Assembly: GCA_035546615.1 (NCBI GenBank)
Contig: DASZWM010000003.1
Location: 92,902 to 156,901, forward strand
Length of the DNA stretch: 64,000 bases
Direction of reading: 5' to 3'
Source of the DNA: Minisyncoccota bacterium
Lineage (GTDB): Bacteria; Patescibacteriota; Minisyncoccia; Phycocordibacterales; SBAW01
Part shown: piece after piece, positions 17,533 through 54,870 of the stretch
How positions within the stretch are numbered: position 1 is the stretch's first letter
How the letters are laid out: every line of letters begins with the position of its first letter
Translations under genes and position numbers: made by a program
The notes under the pieces: model-generated
Told to the model about the DNA's origin: nothing
Databases searched by the model: none
What the model saw: the letters and a program-made list of their open reading frames with translations, nothing else

Positions 17533-17619
17533 GCGGAGGCGGAAGGATTCGAACCTTCGGTCCAGTTTCCCGGACAACAACTTAGCAGGTTGCTGCATTC
17601 GACCGCTCTGCCACGCCTC
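17533..17619 (-). tRNA. tRNA-Ser (anticodon GCU), long variable arm
   Basis: Manual fold: acceptor GGAGGCG/CGCCUCC, anticodon loop CUGCUAA, variable arm GUCCGGGAAACUGGAC, T-loop GGUUCGAAUCC; CCA not encoded. Confidence 0.8.
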
Positions 17620-17634
17620 CGTTACCTCAACACC

Positions 17635-24621: not shown

Positions 24622-24694
24622 GGGCGTGTAGCTCAGTTGGTAGAGCAGCCGACTTATACTCGGCCGGTCCCAGGTTCGATCCCTGGCGCGCCCA
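24622..24694 (+). tRNA. tRNA-Ile with anticodon UAU (decodes AUA)
   Basis: Manual cloverleaf: acceptor GGGCGUG/CGCGCCC, D-arm GCUC/GAGC, anticodon stem GCCGA/UCGGC, loop CUUAUAC (U33, anticodon UAU, A37), T-loop GGUUCGAUCC. Confidence 0.7.
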
Positions 24695-31046: not shown

Positions 31047-31420
31047 GGGAGTGACAGGCTTAGACAATATAAATAATAGTTCGCACGCAAGGGAGAAGCG
31101 GGGACCTTCTTTAAAAAGCCCCAAACCATAACTGCAAAATCAGTTACATCGCCGTATTTCACGGTGAATGACCTCGCTTTCGCTACCGCAAGGAGCTAAG
31201 CGAGCATTGGCTCTGCAACGCTCGTGAGCGGAGTACCAATGTTATAACACCGAGATCGATCGGCTAGCCTGCTTGCCTAGCCCTTCTAAACTAAAGCTGC
31301 GATCCGGTCTTATTTCGTCTGCTTCTTACAACCGGGTCTAAGAAACAAAAGCAGCCTATCTCTTGTAGACCTGCGCTCTATCTTATGTTGCACGGCGGTT
31401 CAACTCCGCCCACTTCCACC
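31047..31420 (+). ncRNA. ssrA: tmRNA (ssrA), one-piece; CCA not encoded
   Basis: Immediately downstream of smpB; 5' GGGAGUGACAGGCUUAGAC pairs with 3' CACUUCC-A-CC (G3-U70 wobble = Ala identity); T-arm GGCGGUUCAACUCCGCC; terminator follows. Confidence 0.7.
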
Positions 31421-31433
31421 GGTAAAAACATTG

Positions 31434-33221: not shown

Positions 33222-33304
33222 CCAGATACTATAGAACGAGGACGTTATATAATCGTCTCGCTGCAGAATCAAAAACAAGTTTTTGTTCACTCACTCGCTA
33301 GATT

Positions 33305-33505
33305 ATGAAAACCAACAAGTCATTTACGAAGCGCCTCAAAATCACCCGTACGGGGAAGATTATCGCGCGCAAGCCCGGCCAGGACCATTTCAACGCCAAG
33401 GAGCGCCGCTCAACCCAGATGGACGGCAACCGCTCCCAGGCCCTTTCCCTTACCCCGAAAGTGTCCCAGCGCTACATCGGCACCGCTTCTAAATCCCGCA
33501 ACTAA
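33305..33505 (+). CDS. rpmI: 50S ribosomal protein L35
   Basis: 66-aa basic protein, infC-rpmI-rplT order. Confidence 0.85.
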   Translation: MKTNKSFTKRLKITRTGKIIARKPGQDHFNAKERRSTQMDGNRSQALSLTPKVSQRYIGTASKSRN

Positions 33506-46031: not shown

Positions 46032-46101
46032 ATCCGGCTTGACAGGGAGCCGAGATATAGAAAACTGAGGGTAGTTGGTCGGCCCGTTGGAGGAAACTGC
46101 C

Positions 46102-46359
46102 ATGGTTGCACTGGCGCCTCCTGAACGGAGGCCGTTGTCGAAAATACGCGTATTCTTCGCCCTGATCGGATTAATAGGCATGACGCTTGTTATCCTCGGA
46201 GGCGCGGCGCTGGCGTTAGACGGCTTGGGAATGTTCTTCATCCACCATCTTCCAGCCGATAGGGCGGCCGGCATCACCGGGATGGGCATCATCCTTGTGG
46301 CAATGGCGATGGGGGTGTTCAACCTTCTGCGAAGAAAAATCAAAGGGCCCGCGGGATGA
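46102..46359 (+). CDS. Small (86 aa) two-TM membrane protein inserted antisense between rpsN and rplE
   Basis: GGAGGA SD 6 nt before ATG 46102; MVALAPPERRPLSKIRVFFALIGLIGMTLVILGGAALAL...; ends at terminator. Confidence 0.4.
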   Translation: MVALAPPERRPLSKIRVFFALIGLIGMTLVILGGAALALDGLGMFFIHHLPADRAAGITGMGIILVAMAMGVFNLLRRKIKGPAG

Positions 46360-46392: not shown

Positions 46393-46929
46393 CTATTTCT
46401 TGAATGGGAAGCCGAGGTGTGTGAGATATGCTTTCGCTTCGTCCTTGTTCTTGGCGCCCGTCACAACCGTGACCGACATGCCGAAGACATCCTTAAGCTC
46501 CTCGTCGGCGGTCTCCGGGAATACCGTGTTCTCCTTGATACCAAGCGTGTAGTTGCCCATCTCGTCGATAGCGGAAGTCTCGATACCCTTGAAGTCCTTG
46601 GTGCGAGGAAGCGCGATGTGCACGAGGCGGTTGAGGAAATCCTCAGCGCGCTTGCCGCGCATCGTTACCTGGTAGCCTATCTTGTCGCCCACGCGGGTCT
46701 TGAAGGTGGCGATGGCCTTCTTGGCGGCGCGGGGAGCCGGCTTCTGTCCGGTTATCTTCTCCAGCCGATTGGCGATGAGCTCGATCTTGTTCTTATCTTT
46801 GGTTGAGCCGGTACCAACGGAAATAACTACCTTCTCCACCTTGGGGGTCTGCATGACATTCACCCACCCAAGAGTGCCCTTGAGCTCCGCGAATGCCGTC
46901 TTCTGCTGTTCTTGAATGAGTTTAGCCAT
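46393..46929 (-). CDS. rplE: 50S ribosomal protein L5
   Basis: typical L5 sequence. Confidence 0.9.
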   Translation of the reverse strand: MAKLIQEQQKTAFAELKGTLGWVNVMQTPKVEKVVISVGTGSTKDKNKIELIANRLEKITGQKPAPRAAKKAIATFKTRVGDKIGYQVTMRGKRAEDFLNRLVHIALPRTKDFKGIETSAIDEMGNYTLGIKENTVFPETADEELKDVFGMSVTVVTGAKNKDEAKAYLTHLGFPFKK

Positions 46930-46937
46930 GGTGGTGG

Positions 46938-47029
46938 ATTATTATCTAGCGAGCGAGAGAAATGAAAACTTGTTTTCATTTCCGAGCGAGCGACGATAAT
47001 ATAAATTTTTCATAAAATTTCTATTTCTT
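46938..47029 (-). repeat. 92-nt AT-rich intercistronic element (copy 1) between rplX stop and rplE start; contains perfect 11-bp hairpin
   Basis: 88/92 nt identical to 49598-49689; gaaatgaaaac-tt-gttttcatttc stem flanked by direct AGCGAGCGA repeats. Confidence 0.6.
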
Positions 47030-48567: not shown

Positions 48568-49248
48568 TTATTTGTCTTTGCCGCCATCCTTGCCGGTGGC
48601 TGCAAAGACCTCGCCGCGGTATATCCAAACCTTGACGCCGATGACGCCGAGCGGAAGGTTCGCGCGCTCCTTGGCATAGTCGATATCCGAACGGAACGTC
48701 TGGAGCGGGATGCGGCCCTTCTTGAGCTCCTCGGTGCGGGACATGGAGCCGCCGCCGAGCATGCCGGAAACGCCGATGCGCACTCCCTTCACGTCGCGGT
48801 TGGCCATCACCTTCTCGATGGTCTGCTTGAGCACGCGGCGGAACGGCATGCGCTTCTCGAGGCTCTCAACCACCATGTATGCGACTATTGCCGCGCTGGA
48901 CTCAGGGCTGCGAATTTCCTCGATATCGAGCTTGATCTCAGGGACCTGGAGCTTGCGCTTCTTAAGGAAGGCGACGATCTTGTCCTTGAGCTTGGTCGAG
49001 CCCTCGCCGGAGCGGCCGATGATGATGCCCGGGCGCGAGGTCTTGATGATAACGCGCAGCTGCTTTTCGTTGCGCTCTATCTCCAGGGCGCCGATGTACA
49101 TGCCGCGAAGCTCCTTCTGCAAAAATTCGCGCAGGAGGATATCGGCCTTGAGGTACTGCTGGTACTTGGCGCCGGTAGCGAACCAGCGGTGACGCCAGTC
49201 ACGCAGTATTCCGAGCCTATGGGCAAATGGGTTTACGACTTTAGACAT
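48568..49248 (-). CDS. rpsC: 30S ribosomal protein S3
   Basis: KH domain, typical S3. Confidence 0.9.
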   Translation of the reverse strand: MSKVVNPFAHRLGILRDWRHRWFATGAKYQQYLKADILLREFLQKELRGMYIGALEIERNEKQLRVIIKTSRPGIIIGRSGEGSTKLKDKIVAFLKKRKLQVPEIKLDIEEIRSPESSAAIVAYMVVESLEKRMPFRRVLKQTIEKVMANRDVKGVRIGVSGMLGGGSMSRTEELKKGRIPLQTFRSDIDYAKERANLPLGVIGVKVWIYRGEVFAATGKDGGKDK

Positions 49249-49252
49249 ATAG

Positions 49253-49594
49253 TTATTGGGCTTTCGCGGCCTTGCGGGAAAGGGCGAGGGTGATATGACT
49301 GGACTTCTTGCGTATCGGGGACGAGCTGCCGCGGGCGCGGGGCATGGAGCGCTTGAAGACGATGCCGCCGTTCACCTGGATGCTTGAAATGTAGAGCTCG
49401 GAGGCCGCAACATCCTTGCTGTTTGCAATAGCGGACTTAACCAGCTTTGCCATCGGGTCGGAGCCGCGCTTCGGGAGCGTGGCAAGAAGCGCGAGCGCGC
49501 GCTCGACGGACTTGCCGCGGATGAGGTCGGCAATGAGGCGCACCTTGCGGGGCGACTGGCGGTAGTTCTTGAGTGATGCGGTTGCGTCTGACAT
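49253..49594 (-). CDS. rplV: 50S ribosomal protein L22
   Basis: typical L22 sequence. Confidence 0.9.
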   Translation of the reverse strand: MSDATASLKNYRQSPRKVRLIADLIRGKSVERALALLATLPKRGSDPMAKLVKSAIANSKDVAASELYISSIQVNGGIVFKRSMPRARGSSSPIRKKSSHITLALSRKAAKAQ

Positions 49595-49597
49595 ATA

Positions 49598-49689
49598 ATT
49601 ATTATCTAGCGAGTGAGAGAAATGAAAACTTGTTTTCTTTTCCGAGCGAGCGACGATAATATAAATTATTCATATAATTTCTATTTCTT
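49598..49689 (-). repeat. 92-nt AT-rich intercistronic element (copy 2) between rpsS stop and rplV start
   Basis: 96% identical to 46938-47029; begins at KK* stop of upstream gene, ends 3 nt before ATG. Confidence 0.6.
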
Positions 49690-50052
49690 GCCTGCCGGAG
49701 CGCCAGCCTTGCCGCCCGCCGCATCAGCCGCAGCCTTGGCCGCGCCCGCTGCCGCGATCTCGGCCTCCTTGGCCTTGGTCTCCATCTCCTTCTGCATCTT
49801 GCCGCCGTGGCGCTGGAACTTCTTCGTGGGAGAGAACTCGCCCAGGCGGTGCCCGACCATGTCCTCGCTCACGAGCACCTCAACGTGCGTCTTGCCGTTG
49901 TGGACGCCGAACTTGAAGCCGACCATTTCGGGGGCTATCTGGCTGCGGCGCGCCCACGTCTTAATAAGCTCAGATCCTTGAGCTTTTTTGCCCTCAATCT
50001 TCTTGAGGAGCTTTTCGTCTACGTATGGTCCTTTTTTGAGGCTGCGTGCCAT
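49681..50052 (-). CDS. rpsS: 30S ribosomal protein S19 with Ala/Lys-rich C-terminal extension
   Basis: S19 core [13 protein letters not shown]...HNGKTHVEV; ~35-aa tail. Confidence 0.85.
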
Positions 50053-50122
50053 ATTTCCAAAATTAAAGCCCCTGTCCGTTTGAGCAGAGAGCGCTCAAAC
50101 CTTGCGACACGGGAGTACAGGG

Positions 50123-50151
50123 ATAGTACAGGATAAGGCTGGGATAGTCAA
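50123..50151 (-). promoter_or_regulatory. Sigma-70-type promoter TTGACT-N17-TACTAT for rpsS operon segment
   Basis: minus-sense aatTTGACTatcccagccttatcctgTACTATccc; leader hairpin gtttgagc-gctctct-gctcaaac (50079-50101). Confidence 0.5.
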
Positions 50152-50196
50152 ATTGTGCTATAGTCGGCCGCGGATTCCCCAACCTAGGAGGTTGCT

Positions 50197-50763
50197 GTGA
50201 TAGCGTCAGCCAATATCGTACAGGCGGAGTACTTTCACGTGGACGGAGGGAGGACTCATTCGCTCGATGTTCTGCGTAATCAAATACGGGAGCGTGTGAA
50301 AGACAATCTCGAGCTAGCCCTTCGGACGGGACAGGAAGTCTCGCCCGGCATCAAGACATGCGTCCGGTTCTGCGATAATGACGAATCGGTTACGGCACGC
50401 GTGCGAGAAGCCGAGCAGCTCGAGAAAAAATATGGCGCGACGCTCGATGCCCTTGGCCGGCCTCGGAACGGTCGCCTTATGCGCTGGTGGTATCGGCGCC
50501 AGCTGCGGAATATCGGCGACAGTAAGAGGCGCGCGAAAGAGACCGCCATAGAACATTCCATATCGGCGCTTTTGCGCGCGATCAAGGCCAAGGAAAAGAT
50601 CGCTGTCGAGAAAAACGACCATTCGTATCGCTTTCTCAACGACAACGAATCGCTCGAACTTGCTGAAAGGGTGAGCGCCGCGAAGAGCGGGTGGATATTT
50701 GTCTTCAAGCCAAATAAAGACCTGTTGGCGGACAGAAACACTATAGTAACCCGTATCATGTAA
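50197..50763 (+). CDS. Hypothetical 188-aa protein inserted antisense between rpsS and rplB (GTG start)
   Basis: AGGAGG SD 6 nt before GTG; extended -10 TGcTATAGT at 50156-50164; own strong terminator. Confidence 0.5.
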   Translation: MIASANIVQAEYFHVDGGRTHSLDVLRNQIRERVKDNLELALRTGQEVSPGIKTCVRFCDNDESVTARVREAEQLEKKYGATLDALGRPRNGRLMRWWYRRQLRNIGDSKRRAKETAIEHSISALLRAIKAKEKIAVEKNDHSYRFLNDNESLELAERVSAAKSGWIFVFKPNKDLLADRNTIVTRIM

Positions 50764-50770
50764 CGAAAAT

Positions 50771-50810
50771 CGCCCCGGCATTTTGCCGGGGCGTTCTCTT
50801 TTTTGTGTTT
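50771..50810. terminator. Rho-independent terminator (bidirectional) after 188-aa gene and after rplB
   Basis: cgccccggc-attt-tgccggggcg + ttctcttttttgtgtttgattttt. Confidence 0.65.
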
Positions 50811-50815
50811 GATTT

Positions 50816-51664
50816 TTACTGCTGTGCTCCGCGCTTGCCGACTTTGCGGCGGGAAACAATGAGGTAGTTGGAGTACTTCTTCGGGCGGCGAGACTTCTGG
50901 CCCTTGCCGGTGGGCTTGCCCCACATGGACTTCGCGCGACGCGTACCGCGGCCCTGGCGGCCTTCGCCTCCGCCGTACGGGTGGTCAACCGGGTTCATTG
51001 CAGTGCCGCGAACGGTCGGGCGGATGCCGAGCCAGCGGCTGCGGCCTGCTTTGCCGAGGTTCATGAGCTTGTTCTCAGGGTTGGAAACTTCGCCGAGGGT
51101 TGCCCAGCAGGTCTCAAGCACCTTGCGCACCTCCGAAGACGGCATCTTAAGGTCTACATAGCCGCCGTCGCGCGCGATAACCTCAATGTGCGTGCCTGCC
51201 GCGCGGCCAAGCTTGGCGCCGTTGCCCGGCTTTATCTCGACGTTGTATACGAATGCGCCGATCGGAACATTCTTAAGCGGCATACGATTGCCCGGAGTGG
51301 CTGCAGCCTCAGTCGCGGTCTCGATAACGTCCCCTACCCGGGCGGTCTGCGGGAGAAGCGCGTAGCGGCGCTCGCCGTCGCGGTACACCAGCACGCCGAT
51401 GAAGCCAGAACGGTTCGGATCATACTCGACGGTCTCTACCTTGGCCGGAACCTGCTTGTCGTAGAAAAAGTCCACCTCGCGGAACATGCGCTTGTGGCCG
51501 CCGCCCTTGTGGCGCACCGAAATGCGGCCCGCGTTGTCGCGGCCGGAACCGCGGCGCCCGCCCTTCGTAAGCGCCTTGTGCGGCTCGTTGGTTGTGAGCT
51601 TGCCGCGGAAGGTTACCGTGGTCATGCCGCGGCGCGATTTAGTATATGGTCGGTAGTGTTTCAT
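50816..51664 (-). CDS. rplB: 50S ribosomal protein L2
   Basis: typical L2 sequence. Confidence 0.9.
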   Translation of the reverse strand: MKHYRPYTKSRRGMTTVTFRGKLTTNEPHKALTKGGRRGSGRDNAGRISVRHKGGGHKRMFREVDFFYDKQVPAKVETVEYDPNRSGFIGVLVYRDGERRYALLPQTARVGDVIETATEAAATPGNRMPLKNVPIGAFVYNVEIKPGNGAKLGRAAGTHIEVIARDGGYVDLKMPSSEVRKVLETCWATLGEVSNPENKLMNLGKAGRSRWLGIRPTVRGTAMNPVDHPYGGGEGRQGRGTRRAKSMWGKPTGKGQKSRRPKKYSNYLIVSRRKVGKRGAQQ

Positions 51665-51695
51665 AAAATCTCTTTTTTAATTGGTCTAAATAAAT

Positions 51696-51983
51696 TTAGA
51701 CCAGCTCGATGGTCTCCCCCTTCTTGAGGAACACGTATGCCTTCTTTCCTGCGCTAGTTTTGCCCTTGCGGTTAGTACGGCGGGTGAGCACTGCCTTGCG
51801 GGGAACAGCGACAATGCGTACGAAGCGAGGAGTGACCTTGTAGACGGTCTGCACCGCATCCGCAATCTCCTTCTTGTTGGCATCCATCGCCACGTTGAAG
51901 ACATAGACGCTATGCTCAGAAAGGTATGCGCCTTTTTCCGTGATGCGGGGCGAGAGCAGTATGTGGGTGTGAGAGCGTTTCAT
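51696..51983 (-). CDS. rplW: 50S ribosomal protein L23
   Basis: typical L23 sequence. Confidence 0.85.
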   Translation of the reverse strand: MKRSHTHILLSPRITEKGAYLSEHSVYVFNVAMDANKKEIADAVQTVYKVTPRFVRIVAVPRKAVLTRRTNRKGKTSAGKKAYVFLKKGETIELV

Positions 51984-51984
51984 A

Positions 51985-52704
51985 TTATTTCTTTACCACC
52001 TTCTTAGCGCCCAAGGTCTCCATAGCGGCGGCCGGCTCTGCAATGATGAGGTACTTGCTGGAGAGGACCGATACCGGGTTCAGGTTGCGCACCTCCACCA
52101 TCTCGACATTACCGAAGTTCTGGAAGCTCTTCTGCGTTGCAACATGCACGCGCGGAATAGCGATAAGCGCGGCGTTCTTTGCCTTCGAAAGGCCGGAGAA
52201 GGTCTTGCCGAGCGCTGCAAGGAGTATCTTGGCCTGTGCGGTCTTCGGGCTGCTCAACTCAAGCGAGTCTATAAAGAGCACCTCCCCGTCCTTGTACTTG
52301 CGGGAAAGGGTCACGAGGAGCGCCTTCTGGCGGGCCTGGCGGTTTATCTTCTGGGCGTAGATCTTCTCGTTGCGAGGACCGTGGGTAACGCCGCCGCCCT
52401 TCCATATAGGAGAGCGCGAGGAGCCATGGCGGGCGCGGCCGGTGCCCTTTTGCTTCCAAGGCTTCTTGCCGCCGCCGCGAACCTCGCCCCGGTCTTTAGT
52501 ATGAGCGACCGGGCCGCGAGCATTGGCCTGCATCGCGGTAACCACCTGGTGCACGAGGTCGGCATTCCAAGGAAGTCCGAAGATGTTCTCCGGAAGCATG
52601 AAGGTGCCGGCCGACTTGCCGTCCTTGTTGAAGACGGAAGCCTCCATCTTGTTGCCGGCCGGAGCGGCCTTCTCTACTTTCTTTGTTTTGGTAGTGGTAG
52701 CCAT
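51985..52704 (-). CDS. rplD: 50S ribosomal protein L4
   Basis: typical L4 sequence. Confidence 0.9.
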   Translation of the reverse strand: MATTTKTKKVEKAAPAGNKMEASVFNKDGKSAGTFMLPENIFGLPWNADLVHQVVTAMQANARGPVAHTKDRGEVRGGGKKPWKQKGTGRARHGSSRSPIWKGGGVTHGPRNEKIYAQKINRQARQKALLVTLSRKYKDGEVLFIDSLELSSPKTAQAKILLAALGKTFSGLSKAKNAALIAIPRVHVATQKSFQNFGNVEMVEVRNLNPVSVLSSKYLIIAEPAAAMETLGAKKVVKK

Positions 52705-52709
52705 AAAAA

Positions 52710-53342
52710 TTATGATGTTGCAGCAGTGCCGCGGATCTCAACTACCGTACCGCGGCGGCCGGGAACGGCGCCTGCGAGAACGAGCTCGTTGGTCTCGGGA
52801 AGTATCTGGAGTATCGGAAGGTTGCGGACGGTTACGCGGTCAGAACCCATGCGGCCCGCCATGCGCATGCCCTTGGCAACGCGGCCTCCCGCGCGGCCGC
52901 CTGAGCCGCCTATGGAGCCCGGTGCGCGCTCGGAGTGCTTCTGGCCGTGGGAGCGAGGACCGCCGTGGAAGCCGTGGCGCTTAACGACGCCCTGGAAGCC
53001 GCGGCCCTTGGAAATAGCCGAAACGGTTACCTTCTCCCCTACTGCGAATGCGGAGAGGTCTACGACTGCGCCGACCTCAACATCTGCCGCGCCGCCCTTG
53101 AGATTGATCTCGCGGAAATGGCGGAGCGCTTTGCCCTTCGTGTGGCCCATCTGCGCCTTGCTGACGTGCTTGGGGGTCGTCTCGACGCCGCCGATCTGGA
53201 CTGCGGAATAGCCGTCCTTCTCCACCGTCTTTATCTGGGTTACCAGGTTAGGAGCGGCGTTTATGACGGTAGCGGCAAAAGCCTGTCCCTCTTCGGTATA
53301 GACAGTAGTCATTTTGCCCTTTGTTCCAAGGATGAATTTCAT
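52710..53342 (-). CDS. rplC: 50S ribosomal protein L3
   Basis: typical L3 sequence. Confidence 0.9.
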   Translation of the reverse strand: MKFILGTKGKMTTVYTEEGQAFAATVINAAPNLVTQIKTVEKDGYSAVQIGGVETTPKHVSKAQMGHTKGKALRHFREINLKGGAADVEVGAVVDLSAFAVGEKVTVSAISKGRGFQGVVKRHGFHGGPRSHGQKHSERAPGSIGGSGGRAGGRVAKGMRMAGRMGSDRVTVRNLPILQILPETNELVLAGAVPGRRGTVVEIRGTAATS

Positions 53343-53359
53343 AACTTAGCGTAGTGAGT

Positions 53360-53383
53360 GAGAAGAAAATGTATTTTCTTCTC
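53360..53383 (-). promoter_or_regulatory. Leader hairpin (11-bp stem) 17 nt upstream of rplC start
   Basis: gagaagaaaat-gt-attttcttctc flanked by AGTGAGTGAG / GGAGCGAC. Confidence 0.4.
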
Positions 53384-53493
53384 CGAACGGAGCGACAGTT
53401 ATATCGGGGGATTTTCCCGCTATGTTGTCTGTAGGTCCCTCTGCTTGGCCCAAGGCCTGGGACGCGGATCAACTCTTATGTAGAGTCCCAAAG

Positions 53494-53522
53494 AATATAC
53501 ATCAGAGCCTTAATTTATGCAA
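53494..53522 (-). promoter_or_regulatory. Sigma-70-type promoter TTGCAT-N17-TATATT for rplC-rplD-rplW-rplB
   Basis: minus-sense TTGCATaaattaaggctctgatgTATATTcttt at edge of AT-rich island. Confidence 0.55.
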
Positions 53523-53544
53523 ATAGTGATGATAAACTTAGTAT

Positions 53545-53961
53545 ATGAACATTTTTGAGATAATTGGATTTATATTTCTTATAAGTGCCTTTTTAATGGG
53601 ATTTGGTTATAATTTATTTACAGATTTCCTTTGGTTTAAATGGCTGCATAAGTGGGTGCCTGAGCAATTCCGAGAGCGTAAAAACATTCAAAAACCTTTT
53701 TCTCTTATGGCTTCTGAATATTTCAAAAATAACTTCTTTGCATTTACTAGTCCCTCAAATCCTCCTGATCCAATGTTTCAAAGGCCTCTTACCCTTCTAC
53801 TTCCTATGATCTTAACCGTTGTTAGCTTGATGATAGCTGGCATATCATTGGTTGAGGCTCCATTTTTTGAATGTCTTATAGGCGTAATTGTTTTTCTCGC
53901 TATTAGTCTGTTCTTTATAGTACGTCTAGCAAAAAGACAGATCAAAAACCATACTTGGTAG
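53545..53961 (+). CDS. Hypothetical 138-aa membrane protein encoded in AT-rich island
   Basis: AT-rich codon usage distinct from host; 3-4 TM helices; hairpin gcctcatc-aaaaat-gatgaggc downstream. Confidence 0.5.
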   Translation: MNIFEIIGFIFLISAFLMGFGYNLFTDFLWFKWLHKWVPEQFRERKNIQKPFSLMASEYFKNNFFAFTSPSNPPDPMFQRPLTLLLPMILTVVSLMIAGISLVEAPFFECLIGVIVFLAISLFFIVRLAKRQIKNHTW

Positions 53962-54210
53962 AAAATAAGGGCAAGAATAAAGCCTCATCAAAAATGATGA
54001 GGCGGATGGGGAGGGAGAGGAGGGTGGGGAAAAAAGAGAAGAAAGAACTAGATGGAATGATGGAGTGGGAGAGCGTGTAAAAACAGAGGCTCAGGAAGGA
54101 TGCGAGAGTACCGTAAGCGAGCGCGCTATATGGTTTCCCATCGCAGACCTCCGCTGTCAGTCAGTCCGTTTATGAGAACCGGGCACGACGCAAAAGGTTA
54201 CATACACGAA

Positions 54211-54234
54211 AAGGCCTCCGCGCGGAGGCCTTTT
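54211..54234. terminator. Palindromic GC hairpin with flanking A/T runs (possible bidirectional terminator, end of candidate sRNA)
   Basis: gaaaaggcctccg-cgcggaggccttttcg. Confidence 0.4.
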
Positions 54235-54420
54235 CGTTCCAATTTCTTTGCTCAGCTTGCAGAGTGTGCCCTGTGGGCTGCAAACGGAACAAAAAACCCG
54301 ACCTATAGTTCGGGCGAAATTAACGCCTATGTGTCGCGACTAAAGGACAAAACCGTACTGAGCGTCTTGTTCTAAGTATATGAATTGCTCATCTTTAGTC
54401 AATAAAATTTTCCACAAAAA

Positions 54421-54448
54421 CAAAAACTCCCGCCGAAGCGGGAGTTTT
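54421..54448 (-). terminator. Rho-independent terminator directly downstream of rpsJ
   Basis: minus-sense aaaaactcccgc-ttcg-gcgggagtttttgtttttgtgg. Confidence 0.6.
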
Positions 54449-54492
54449 TCGAATGCCATTCTTTTTGATTTGTAAAAATGTCCTAGCTAACG

Positions 54493-54870
54493 CTATGCCA
54501 TTTTTACGTCGATAGTGACACCGGAAGGAAGTGAGAGGTTCGTGAGAGCCTCGATGACCTTGGCAGACGGATCGAGGATGTCGATGACGCGCTTATGGAT
54601 GCGCATCTCGAACTGCTCGCGCGCGTCCTTGTAGACGAAGGTCGAGCGGTTGACCGTGTACTTCTTTATCTCGGTCGGCAGCGGTATCGGGCCTGCGACC
54701 TTCGCGTCGTAGCGAAGCGCGGTGTCGAGTATCTGCTTGATGCTCGCATCAAGCACCTTGTGCTCGTACGCGCGGACCTTGATGCGAAGGCGCTGGACTG
54801 CGGCCGGGGCGGCTGCGCGGCGTGCGCGCTTAGGAGCTGCTTTCTTCTCTGCTATTGGTTCGGTAGCCAT
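54493..54870 (-). CDS. rpsJ: 30S ribosomal protein S10 (with ~25-aa basic N-terminal extension)
   Basis: [25 protein letters not shown]... Confidence 0.85.

Follow-up and report, generated by a model that had tools for sequence, protein, structure and literature searches.

Why should a gene of 188 codons lie antisense between rplB and rpsS, two ribosomal protein genes whose junction, in bacteria in general, spans only a few nucleotides? The question is raised by a stretch of 64 000 nucleotides from a Minisyncoccota bacterium (contig DASZWM010000003.1; hereafter the window, in which all positions are counted unless a related locus is named). Here the rplB–rpsS spacing is 763 bp (50053–50815), and a preliminary description of this DNA had read it as an exceptional insertion of a non-ribosomal gene into a tight junction. 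We consider it probable that the 188-aa open reading frame (ORF; hereafter ORF188) is a genuine, separately transcribed accessory gene, and that it sits in a standing break of the Paceibacteria S10 cluster rather than in a tight junction.

ORF188 runs from a GTG start at 50197 to 50763 on the plus strand. A word-based search matched only two proteins: the deposited short form P0001 (HVV15151.1, VHD55_02000; 155 aa, ‘hypothetical protein’, Candidatus Paceibacterota bacterium) and the 66%-identical P0002, encoded on a 197-kb JGI contig between L2 and S19 in the same orientation as the window gene. A codon alignment with L001, the Logan copy of the P0002 locus, yielded a ratio of nonsynonymous to synonymous substitution rates (dN/dS) of 0.16 with a dS of 1.33–1.38, and the differences at codon positions 1, 2 and 3 numbered 46, 31 and 88, respectively, dominated by the third position. 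The preliminary description had proposed two checks, conservation of the ORF and presence of the junction in sibling genomes, and both came out in its favour: the ORF is conserved under purifying selection, and an orthologue occupies the same junction in at least five other assemblies, so the junction is not an assembly artefact. Long spurious ORFs are common in a G+C-rich genome, several long ORFs on the opposite strand overlap this one and the deposited annotation picked a different start, all of which could be taken to favour a chance open frame in a G+C-rich spacer. However, the codon-phased substitutions, the 230 family representatives and the confident structure model described below speak against chance, as do independent JGI, Logan and ENA assemblies with the same arrangement against an artefact, and we regard this explanation as already refuted.

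The start codon can also be fixed. The deposited HVV15151.1 begins at an internal GTG, 33 codons too late, and so omits positions 50197–50295. The N-terminal motif NIVQAEFFHV, missing from the deposited form, is among the best-kept parts of the family alignment, which argues that the GTG at 50197 is right and the deposited start too short. An exact look-up of the short form matched no contig, and a scan of metagenome contigs with a two-sequence alignment confirmed no locus, its patterns probably being too specific. As far as the sequence allows us to judge, the ORF is a genuine non-ribosomal accessory gene with its own signals, antisense between rplB and rpsS.

These signals, listed in the preliminary description, were all located. 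A Shine–Dalgarno sequence, AGGAGG (50186–50191, plus strand), lies 5 nt before the GTG and recurs at the equivalent position in the related loci L001, L087 and L088. Upstream is a putative extended −10 element, TGcTATAGT (TGCTATAGT; 50156–50164, plus strand). The motif TGNTATAGT occurs twice in the window against 0.46 occurrences expected, the element is kept in L001 and L088 with weaker variants in L087 (TGCTAGGTT) and L035 (TGGTAGAGT), and TATAGT is the usual −10 among rplC promoters of the clade. Back-to-back with it stands the predicted rpsS promoter, TTGACT-17-TACTAT (50151–50123, minus strand), whose motif type has a single site in the window against 0.05 expected; the two promoters share roughly 50136–50151, an overlap of about 16 bp. 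This layout is conserved in L001 and L088, and in L087 and L035 with a weaker −10. At the other end of the gene, a bidirectional intrinsic terminator (50771–50793; 10-bp stem, 9 G–C pairs) is common to the convergent rplB and ORF188. It scores as terminator-like on both strands, with tails TTCTCTTTTT (plus) and ATTTTCGTTA (minus), and its stem is unchanged in L001, where the differences are confined to the loop. The spacing thus holds a terminator, two promoters and one gene, with a native-like G+C content of 0.50–0.59 against about 0.57–0.65 in the flanks.

From these signals, the 188-aa gene would be a monocistronic unit, transcribed from the extended −10 with a start near 50171 and a 25-nt leader that includes the Shine–Dalgarno sequence, translated from AGGAGG-N5-GTG, and ended at the hairpin 50771–50793 that would also terminate rplB. 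Such a unit would have a heavily transcribed ribosomal unit on either side. Because its promoter and that of rpsS overlap, the two may compete for RNA polymerase, and any read-through from rplB would run antisense over the gene.

How unusual is an occupied junction of this kind? A scan with the window L2, taking one genome per species, gave 80 Paceibacteria loci with L2 identities of 63–92%, among them Adlerbacteria, Kaiserbacteria, Nomurabacteria, Zambryskibacteria and others. The L2–S19 gap has a median of 863 bp and a range of 20 to 5570 bp, and measures 30 bp or less in only one of 63 species representatives. The S10–L3 gap (median 276 bp) is a second soft junction, variable among relatives, while the junctions L3–L4, L4–L23, L23–L2, S19–L22, L22–S3 and S3–L16 are tight, with medians of −40 to 13 bp. 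Under a strict rule, a perfect hairpin with a T-tract was found within 120 nt past rplB in 50 of 79 loci, and several more have an imperfect one. Of 65 related sequences, 46 have a strict TTGAC[AT]-N16-17-TAnnnT motif 57–150 nt ahead of rpsS, the others showing near variants by eye. Given the two loose gaps, the rplB terminators and the rpsS promoters, the cluster is therefore arranged as three units, S10 / L3-L4-L23-L2 / S19-L22-S3..., throughout the Paceibacteria group. Across the class Paceibacteria (Parcubacteria, candidate phyla radiation; CPR), the operon is interrupted at the L2–S19 boundary, which is a site of variable cargo.

The premise that this junction normally measures a few nucleotides therefore stands for bacteria at large but not for this lineage, and an exceptional insertion into a tight junction is contradicted by a lineage-wide break with variable cargo; the single case is ordinary, because an occupied junction is the norm. 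Our literature search found no described rplB/rpsS break or rpsS leader in the CPR or Parcubacteria. The window itself keeps the gene order S10-L3-L4-L23-L2-S19-L22-S3-L16-L29-S17, as does the JGI relative, but does not form a single-unit S10 operon, with rplB and rpsS tightly joined and no terminator or promoter between them. All of these genes are on the minus strand: S10 at 54493–54870, L3 at 52710–53342, L4 at 51985–52704, L23 at 51696–51983 and rplB (L2, from the ORF list and its translation) at 50816–51664, which closes the unit L3-L4-L23-L2, then rpsS (S19, from the ORF list) at 49681–50052, which opens the unit S19-L22-S3-L16..., L22 at 49253–49594 and S3 at 48568–49248, with the cluster running on downstream.

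The cargo of the gap differs from species to species. ORFs of at least 60 aa, listed mechanically, number 199, of which 110 are singletons and the remainder fall into many small families. Close relatives (L2 identity above 77%) mostly carry one or two antisense ORFs, and examples of cargo include a Dabb domain protein (L006), a SAICAR synthetase (L003) and an IS200-type transposase (L039). In distant Paceibacteria (L2 64–70% identical), the gap holds a sense-strand rplJ (L10), often accompanied by rplL (L7/L12), by a protein of about 185 aa with a weak helix-turn-helix match and by a membrane protein of about 231 aa; gaps of the rplJ type were seen in L048, L049, L050, L058, L059, L062, L067, L075, L076 and L079. 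The idea that other antisense gap ORFs are diverged copies of ORF188 was ruled out by their separate BLAST clusters and by an hhalign probability of 0.1%, the value obtained for an unrelated four-member antisense gap family (L008, L012, L015 and L032) against the ORF188 family.

Within the sub-lineage of the window genome, the gap cargo is a member of an unnamed family of about 180 aa. P0002 and P0003 (66% and 54% identical to ORF188) are encoded in the L2–S19 gap on the opposite strand; the gene for P0004 (50%) adjoins rpsS divergently, and that for P0009 (48%) adjoins the rplB 3′ end convergently. Beyond these, P0156 and P0157 (43% and 42%) come from unrelated loci without a ribosomal neighbour, and P0010 (42%) and P0160 (38%) likewise from unrelated loci. 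P0005 (35%) is found among NUDIX/HAD/HIT genes, P0006 (31%) just ahead of rplJ-rplL in the same orientation, and P0162 (30%) between RecJ/RNase H and EVE genes, while a member in L035 (30%) is again antisense in the L2–S19 gap. The neighbourhoods of the distant members revealed no recurrent partner gene. Around rplB in the 80 species loci, a family member is present in L035 only and missing from the other 79. Loci that are closer to the window by L2 identity, L003 (92%) as well as L004 and L007 (84–86%), carry other cargo, and the presence of the gene at the site is therefore patchy. The 188-aa gene is one of many alternative occupants of the gap, an ordinary accessory gene for its lineage.

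This distribution bears on whether the protein might be a lineage-specific factor associated with the ribosome or translation, with its position reflecting functional coupling. One sub-family is embedded in the S10 cluster, P0006 is encoded alongside rplJ-rplL, and the ribosomes of the CPR are themselves unusual. However, the gene runs antisense to the ribosomal genes with its own signals, most of the distant members sampled have no ribosomal neighbour, in most relatives the gap is filled by unrelated genes, and 79 of 80 species-representative loci around rplB lack the gene. We therefore give the idea of such a factor very little credence.

ORF188 is not an orphan, since it belongs to a sizeable uncharacterised family, with 50%-identity clusters numbering at least 230, seen so far only in Paceibacterota/Minisyncoccia. 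A profile built from three sequences found six further members, and an exhaustive HMMER search returned 230 cluster representatives (50% identity) at E ≤ 1e-3, 114 of them at E ≤ 1e-10. Nearly all are 165–195 aa long and aligned end to end, and those with names are annotated only as ‘hypothetical protein’, from metagenome-assembled genomes of Paceibacterota or Minisyncoccia. In an alignment of 118 sequences, E11 and R57 are invariant, and Q9, F13, K53, D60, E138, E151, W166, F168 and F170 are at least 90% conserved. The window protein, the reference row of this alignment, has all 11 residues and matches the profile over its full length. The preliminary description had recognised no domain in the protein, and our searches agree: Pfam, NCBIfam, PADLOC and PHROGs gave no significant match for the window protein and nothing consistent across the 118 members, profile searches of PDB sequences found no significant match, and tblastn against phage and plasmid collections had no match. 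A lead to PIN-TPR-GreABC (PF20698) was rejected; it came from P0007 alone, whose 23.1 bits fall short of the Pfam gathering threshold of 27.8, and the remaining 117 of 118 members, the window protein among them, had no match.

The structure was modelled using AlphaFold. A prediction from two sequences was discarded (predicted local distance difference test score, pLDDT, 41), and an alignment of eight family sequences was used instead, giving a confident AlphaFold2 model (pLDDT 89.1, predicted template modelling score 0.82) for which no structural neighbour was found. The predicted elements are β1 (residues 6–13), α1 (23–44), β2 (53–60), α2 (64–86), α3 (93–130), β3 (136–138), β4 (144–146), α4 (149–160), β5 (164–170) and β6 (183–187). 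Based on the order of these elements, rather than on coordinates, we read the predicted fold as a β-α-β/β-α-β (ferredoxin-like) core whose two halves are separated by an inserted helical hairpin of 67 residues; the protein is presumably soluble. The conserved polar residues Q9, E11, K53, R57, D60, E138 and E151 lie mostly on predicted strands, which suggests, as a best guess, that the protein probably works in trans, either as an enzyme or by binding nucleotides or nucleic acids, and is not a ribosomal component. For a ribosomal, an rpsS-regulatory or a mobile role we found no evidence.

How did the gene come to be there? When the window is compared with L001, the C-terminal part of L2 has a dS of 0.17 and the N-terminal part of S19 one of 0.47, against 1.33–1.38 for the ORF. 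The end of rplB in L001 is peculiar. Its last 21 codons contain 15 synonymous differences in 14.3 synonymous sites, with amino acids identical to those of the window, and the region 1046–1260 of L001 consists of this recoded rplB end followed by an in-frame pseudo-copy of a window-like 3′ end, split by a repeat element of about 80 nt. This suggests repair or replacement via recombination with DNA of another lineage. Because the recoded end lies next to a pseudo-copy, foreign DNA appears to recombine in at the rplB 3′ end, a pattern that would fit cassette exchange anchored in conserved ribosomal genes; the flank samples are small. There are also signs of loss. An in-frame TAG interrupts P0003 (L087, 653–655) and an in-frame TAA interrupts P0004 (L088, 2167–2169), at different former Arg positions; the homologous family sequence continues past both stops, with the proportion of nonsynonymous differences (pN) far below that of synonymous ones (pS). 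These nonsense codons are either recent inactivations or read errors, and the 188-aa gene would seem to be dispensable in some lineages.

A patchy gene with some nonsense-mutated copies could also be a selfish mobile element or its remnant, for instance a toxin or a homing-type nuclease of the free-standing kind, targeting the conserved rplB/rpsS boundary. The variable contexts of the family, the distant member at the identical junction in L035, the recoded copy that replaced the L001 rplB 3′ end beside a miniature repeat element, and acidic and basic residues whose conservation would suit a metal-dependent nuclease are all consistent with such an origin. On the other hand, no nuclease, transposase, integrase (GIY-YIG, HNH, LAGLIDADG, DDE, Y1 and the like), toxin or defence-system match was obtained for the 118 members in Pfam, NCBIfam, PADLOC or PHROGs, the sole PIN-like match being the sub-threshold one to a single member. 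A repeat search of 49500–51800 gave chance-level pairs only, with no terminal inverted repeats or target-site duplication bracketing the insert. A single gene stands between the ribosomal genes, with no antitoxin-like partner and no toxin–antitoxin match; phage and plasmid homologues were not found, the G+C content is native-like, and purifying selection (dN/dS 0.16) has acted over a long divergence. A selfish origin thus seems unlikely to us.

We turn now to the other side of the gene, where the 140-bp stretch that separates the ORF from rpsS shows strong conservation between the window and L001. It includes a predicted structured 5′ leader of rpsS (50054–50120, minus strand), a two-helix hairpin (about 50069–50113) followed by a U-rich tract, resembling an attenuator. 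The hairpin is found 2–4 nt past the expected rpsS start site in 20 loci. Its internal loop (CAAG) and apical loop (GCUCUCU) are both conserved, and it has a U-rich tail; the window version reads CCCGUGUCGCAAGG-UUUGAGC-GCUCUCU-GCUCAAA-CGGACAGGGG-CUUUAAUUUUGG, spanning about 50113–50058 (minus strand). In a set of 19 sequences, pairing holds in 98% of cells, and compensatory changes (57 cells) support 11 of the 16 pairs; no shuffle attains these values, and slid registers reach 36–42% pairing. RNAalifold independently gives the same structure with an invariant G·U closing pair, which together with five further G·U cells favours the rpsS-sense strand. A covariance model matches once per locus, always just upstream of rpsS (20 loci), with one match in the window at 50054–50120. 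In an Rfam scan of 49550–50900, the best match had E = 0.13 and every match was far below the gathering score. Other relatives have a simpler G+C-rich hairpin and U-tract at this position. We regard the rpsS leader as a well-supported new candidate cis-regulatory RNA, absent from Rfam, which could be an attenuator controlled by a ribosomal protein or else a 5′-terminal stabilising hairpin.

Another possible reading is that the 188-aa protein serves specifically to regulate the rpsS operon, being transcribed divergently from overlapping promoters and acting on the rpsS promoter or leader RNA. An overlap of about 16 bp is reminiscent of classical regulator/target pairs, the layout persists in L001 and L088 and, with a weaker −10, in L087 and L035, the five closest family members all adjoin rpsS and/or rplB, and the structured leader lies between the 188-aa gene and rpsS. 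Yet at least 15 loci that lack a family member within 6 kb have this rpsS promoter and leader too, and two orthologues have nonsense codons but an intact rpsS leader. Distant members reside among NUDIX/HAD/HIT genes, RecJ/RNase H/EVE genes and other unrelated neighbours, and a search of the 118 members revealed neither a helix-turn-helix nor any other domain for binding DNA or RNA. A dedicated regulator is thus, in our estimation, highly unlikely.

Taken together, the observations are best accommodated by an accessory gene in a standing operon break. The rplB unit would end at its intrinsic terminator, and the rpsS unit would restart from its own sigma-70-type promoter, followed by the leader hairpin with its U-rich tail; the DNA between the units spans as little as 20 bp in some species and upwards of 5.5 kb in others, and carries unrelated cargo. 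The gene most likely reached the site, and persists there, by recombination anchored in the very conserved flanking ribosomal genes. Several points weigh against this account. The promoters, start sites and termination are consensus-level readings of the sequence. The excess of dS in the ORF rests on short flanks (32–51 synonymous sites), and codon-usage constraint on the ribosomal genes could add to the contrast. Both nonsense codons could be errors, each being known from a single short-read contig, and the mechanical ORF lists of other species may include spurious ‘cargo’. The L035 gap member (30%) is less like ORF188 than members found elsewhere (42–43%), so a single ancestral placement with vertical descent cannot explain all cases. 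Finally, neither a homologue nor a structural neighbour offers a lead on the predicted biochemical function.

A bolder version would hold that the rplB–rpsS boundary, and also rpsJ–rplC, is a dedicated recombination hotspot at which near-invariant ribosomal genes serve as homology arms for swapping small cassettes between lineages, with the downstream half of the cluster placed under a new attenuator-type leader and the cassette representing the founding member of an enzyme family with a new fold. We hold this combination to be possible but doubtful, and retain the simpler account of an accessory gene in a lineage-wide break.

Several further observations were made in and around the ribosomal cluster. 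A miniature repeat element of about 60–83 nt (GATATAACYGTCGCTC..TCGGA, a hairpin, then ..CGCTAAGTTAT) occurs in the window at 53341–53423, 49606–49664, 46946–47005 and 1393–1464 on the minus strand and at 33240–33306 on the plus strand, and elsewhere in L001 (1092–1169), L008, L010, L013 and L024. The L001 copy is inverted inside the old rplB 3′ end. One window copy is inserted exactly within the rplC start codon: relatives read ...GACAAC-ATG and the window reads ...GACAAC-AT[element]AT-G, the ATG being restored by the element itself. Further copies, in sense orientation, occupy the S19–L22 and L24–L5 spacers.

The S10–L3 gap of the window (53343–54492) spans 1.15 kb, and its G+C content falls to 0.33–0.40. 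It contains an antisense ORF for a membrane-like protein of 138 aa (53545–53961, plus strand) with no PHROG or PADLOC match. On the minus strand are a terminator past rpsJ, a TTGACT-16-TATACT promoter (about 54380–54410) and, downstream of the promoter, two terminator-like hairpins (about 54300–54325 and 54210–54235); promoter and hairpins may delimit small RNAs. In close relatives (L002–L045), rplC is preceded by a conserved leader (window about 53424–53520, minus strand) consisting of a TTGCAT...TATAGT promoter, GGGACTCTC..ACATAGGGTTGTCCACGTCCC, a variable hairpin and GGGACCAATAGACAAC-ATG, which is another candidate ribosomal leader. A 94-aa membrane-like ORF (46075–46359, plus strand) lies antisense just beyond rplE (46393–46929, minus strand), and in the JGI relative a plus-strand gene of 101 aa separates S14 from L5; there may be a third soft junction near rplE. 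The window S19 has 123 aa with an Ala/Lys-rich C-terminal tail of about 30 residues (49681–49780), and S19 matches in many related loci stop near residue 91–99 of the window protein, so the tail is variable. In the whole window, the only Rfam matches at the gathering score were a transfer-messenger RNA (31047–31421, plus strand) and transfer RNAs at 24622–24694 (plus strand) and 17534–17620 (minus strand); the window contains no ribosomal RNA.

The syntenic ribosomal protein block is widely used for CPR phylogeny and binning, and is generally treated as a tight, invariant operon. In one large class, it is interrupted, as a rule, at two fixed junctions where variable cargo gathers, which bears on operon evolution, on the coordination of ribosomal protein synthesis in reduced genomes and on annotation pipelines. 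The rpsS leader is directly testable as a candidate cis-regulatory RNA, and the protein family, conserved, small, confidently modelled and with no known relatives, is a clean target for structural and functional work. We consider this combination of a split S10 cluster with variable cargo, a covarying leader and an uncharacterised family without structural relatives to be modestly novel.

How does the locus compare with known systems? Integration or recombination hotspots between conserved core genes are a general concept for bacterial chromosomes, and the L2–S19 gap resembles them in its variable, unrelated content between conserved genes and in flanks that are far more similar than the cargo. 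It differs in lying inside a normally single ribosomal operon, in holding mostly one or two small genes, often antisense, and in involving no integrase or tRNA. The protein is akin to other CPR-restricted ‘hypothetical protein’ families, all named members of the ORF188 family being annotated in that way. The leader invites comparison with that of the S10 operon in E. coli, an attenuator under the control of L4: a hairpin and U-rich tract just after the promoter of a ribosomal unit look much like an attenuator, but the leader here precedes rpsS and matches no Rfam family. A precedent for a lineage-specific internal regulatory RNA within the S10 cluster is the Alphaproteobacterial L2 r-leader candidate upstream of rplB-rpsS-rplV-rpsC (Eckert and Weinberg 2020, PMC7247131), which sits before rplB, whereas the Paceibacteria leader sits before rpsS; the ribosomal-leader catalogue in that paper has no entry for rpsS and says nothing of Parcubacteria or the CPR. 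With the canonical S10 operon (rpsJ-rplC-rplD-rplW-rplB-rpsS-rplV-rpsC-rplP-rpmC-rpsQ), finally, the cluster shares its gene order, but here that order is cut in three, with a terminator after rplB and a promoter and leader before rpsS.

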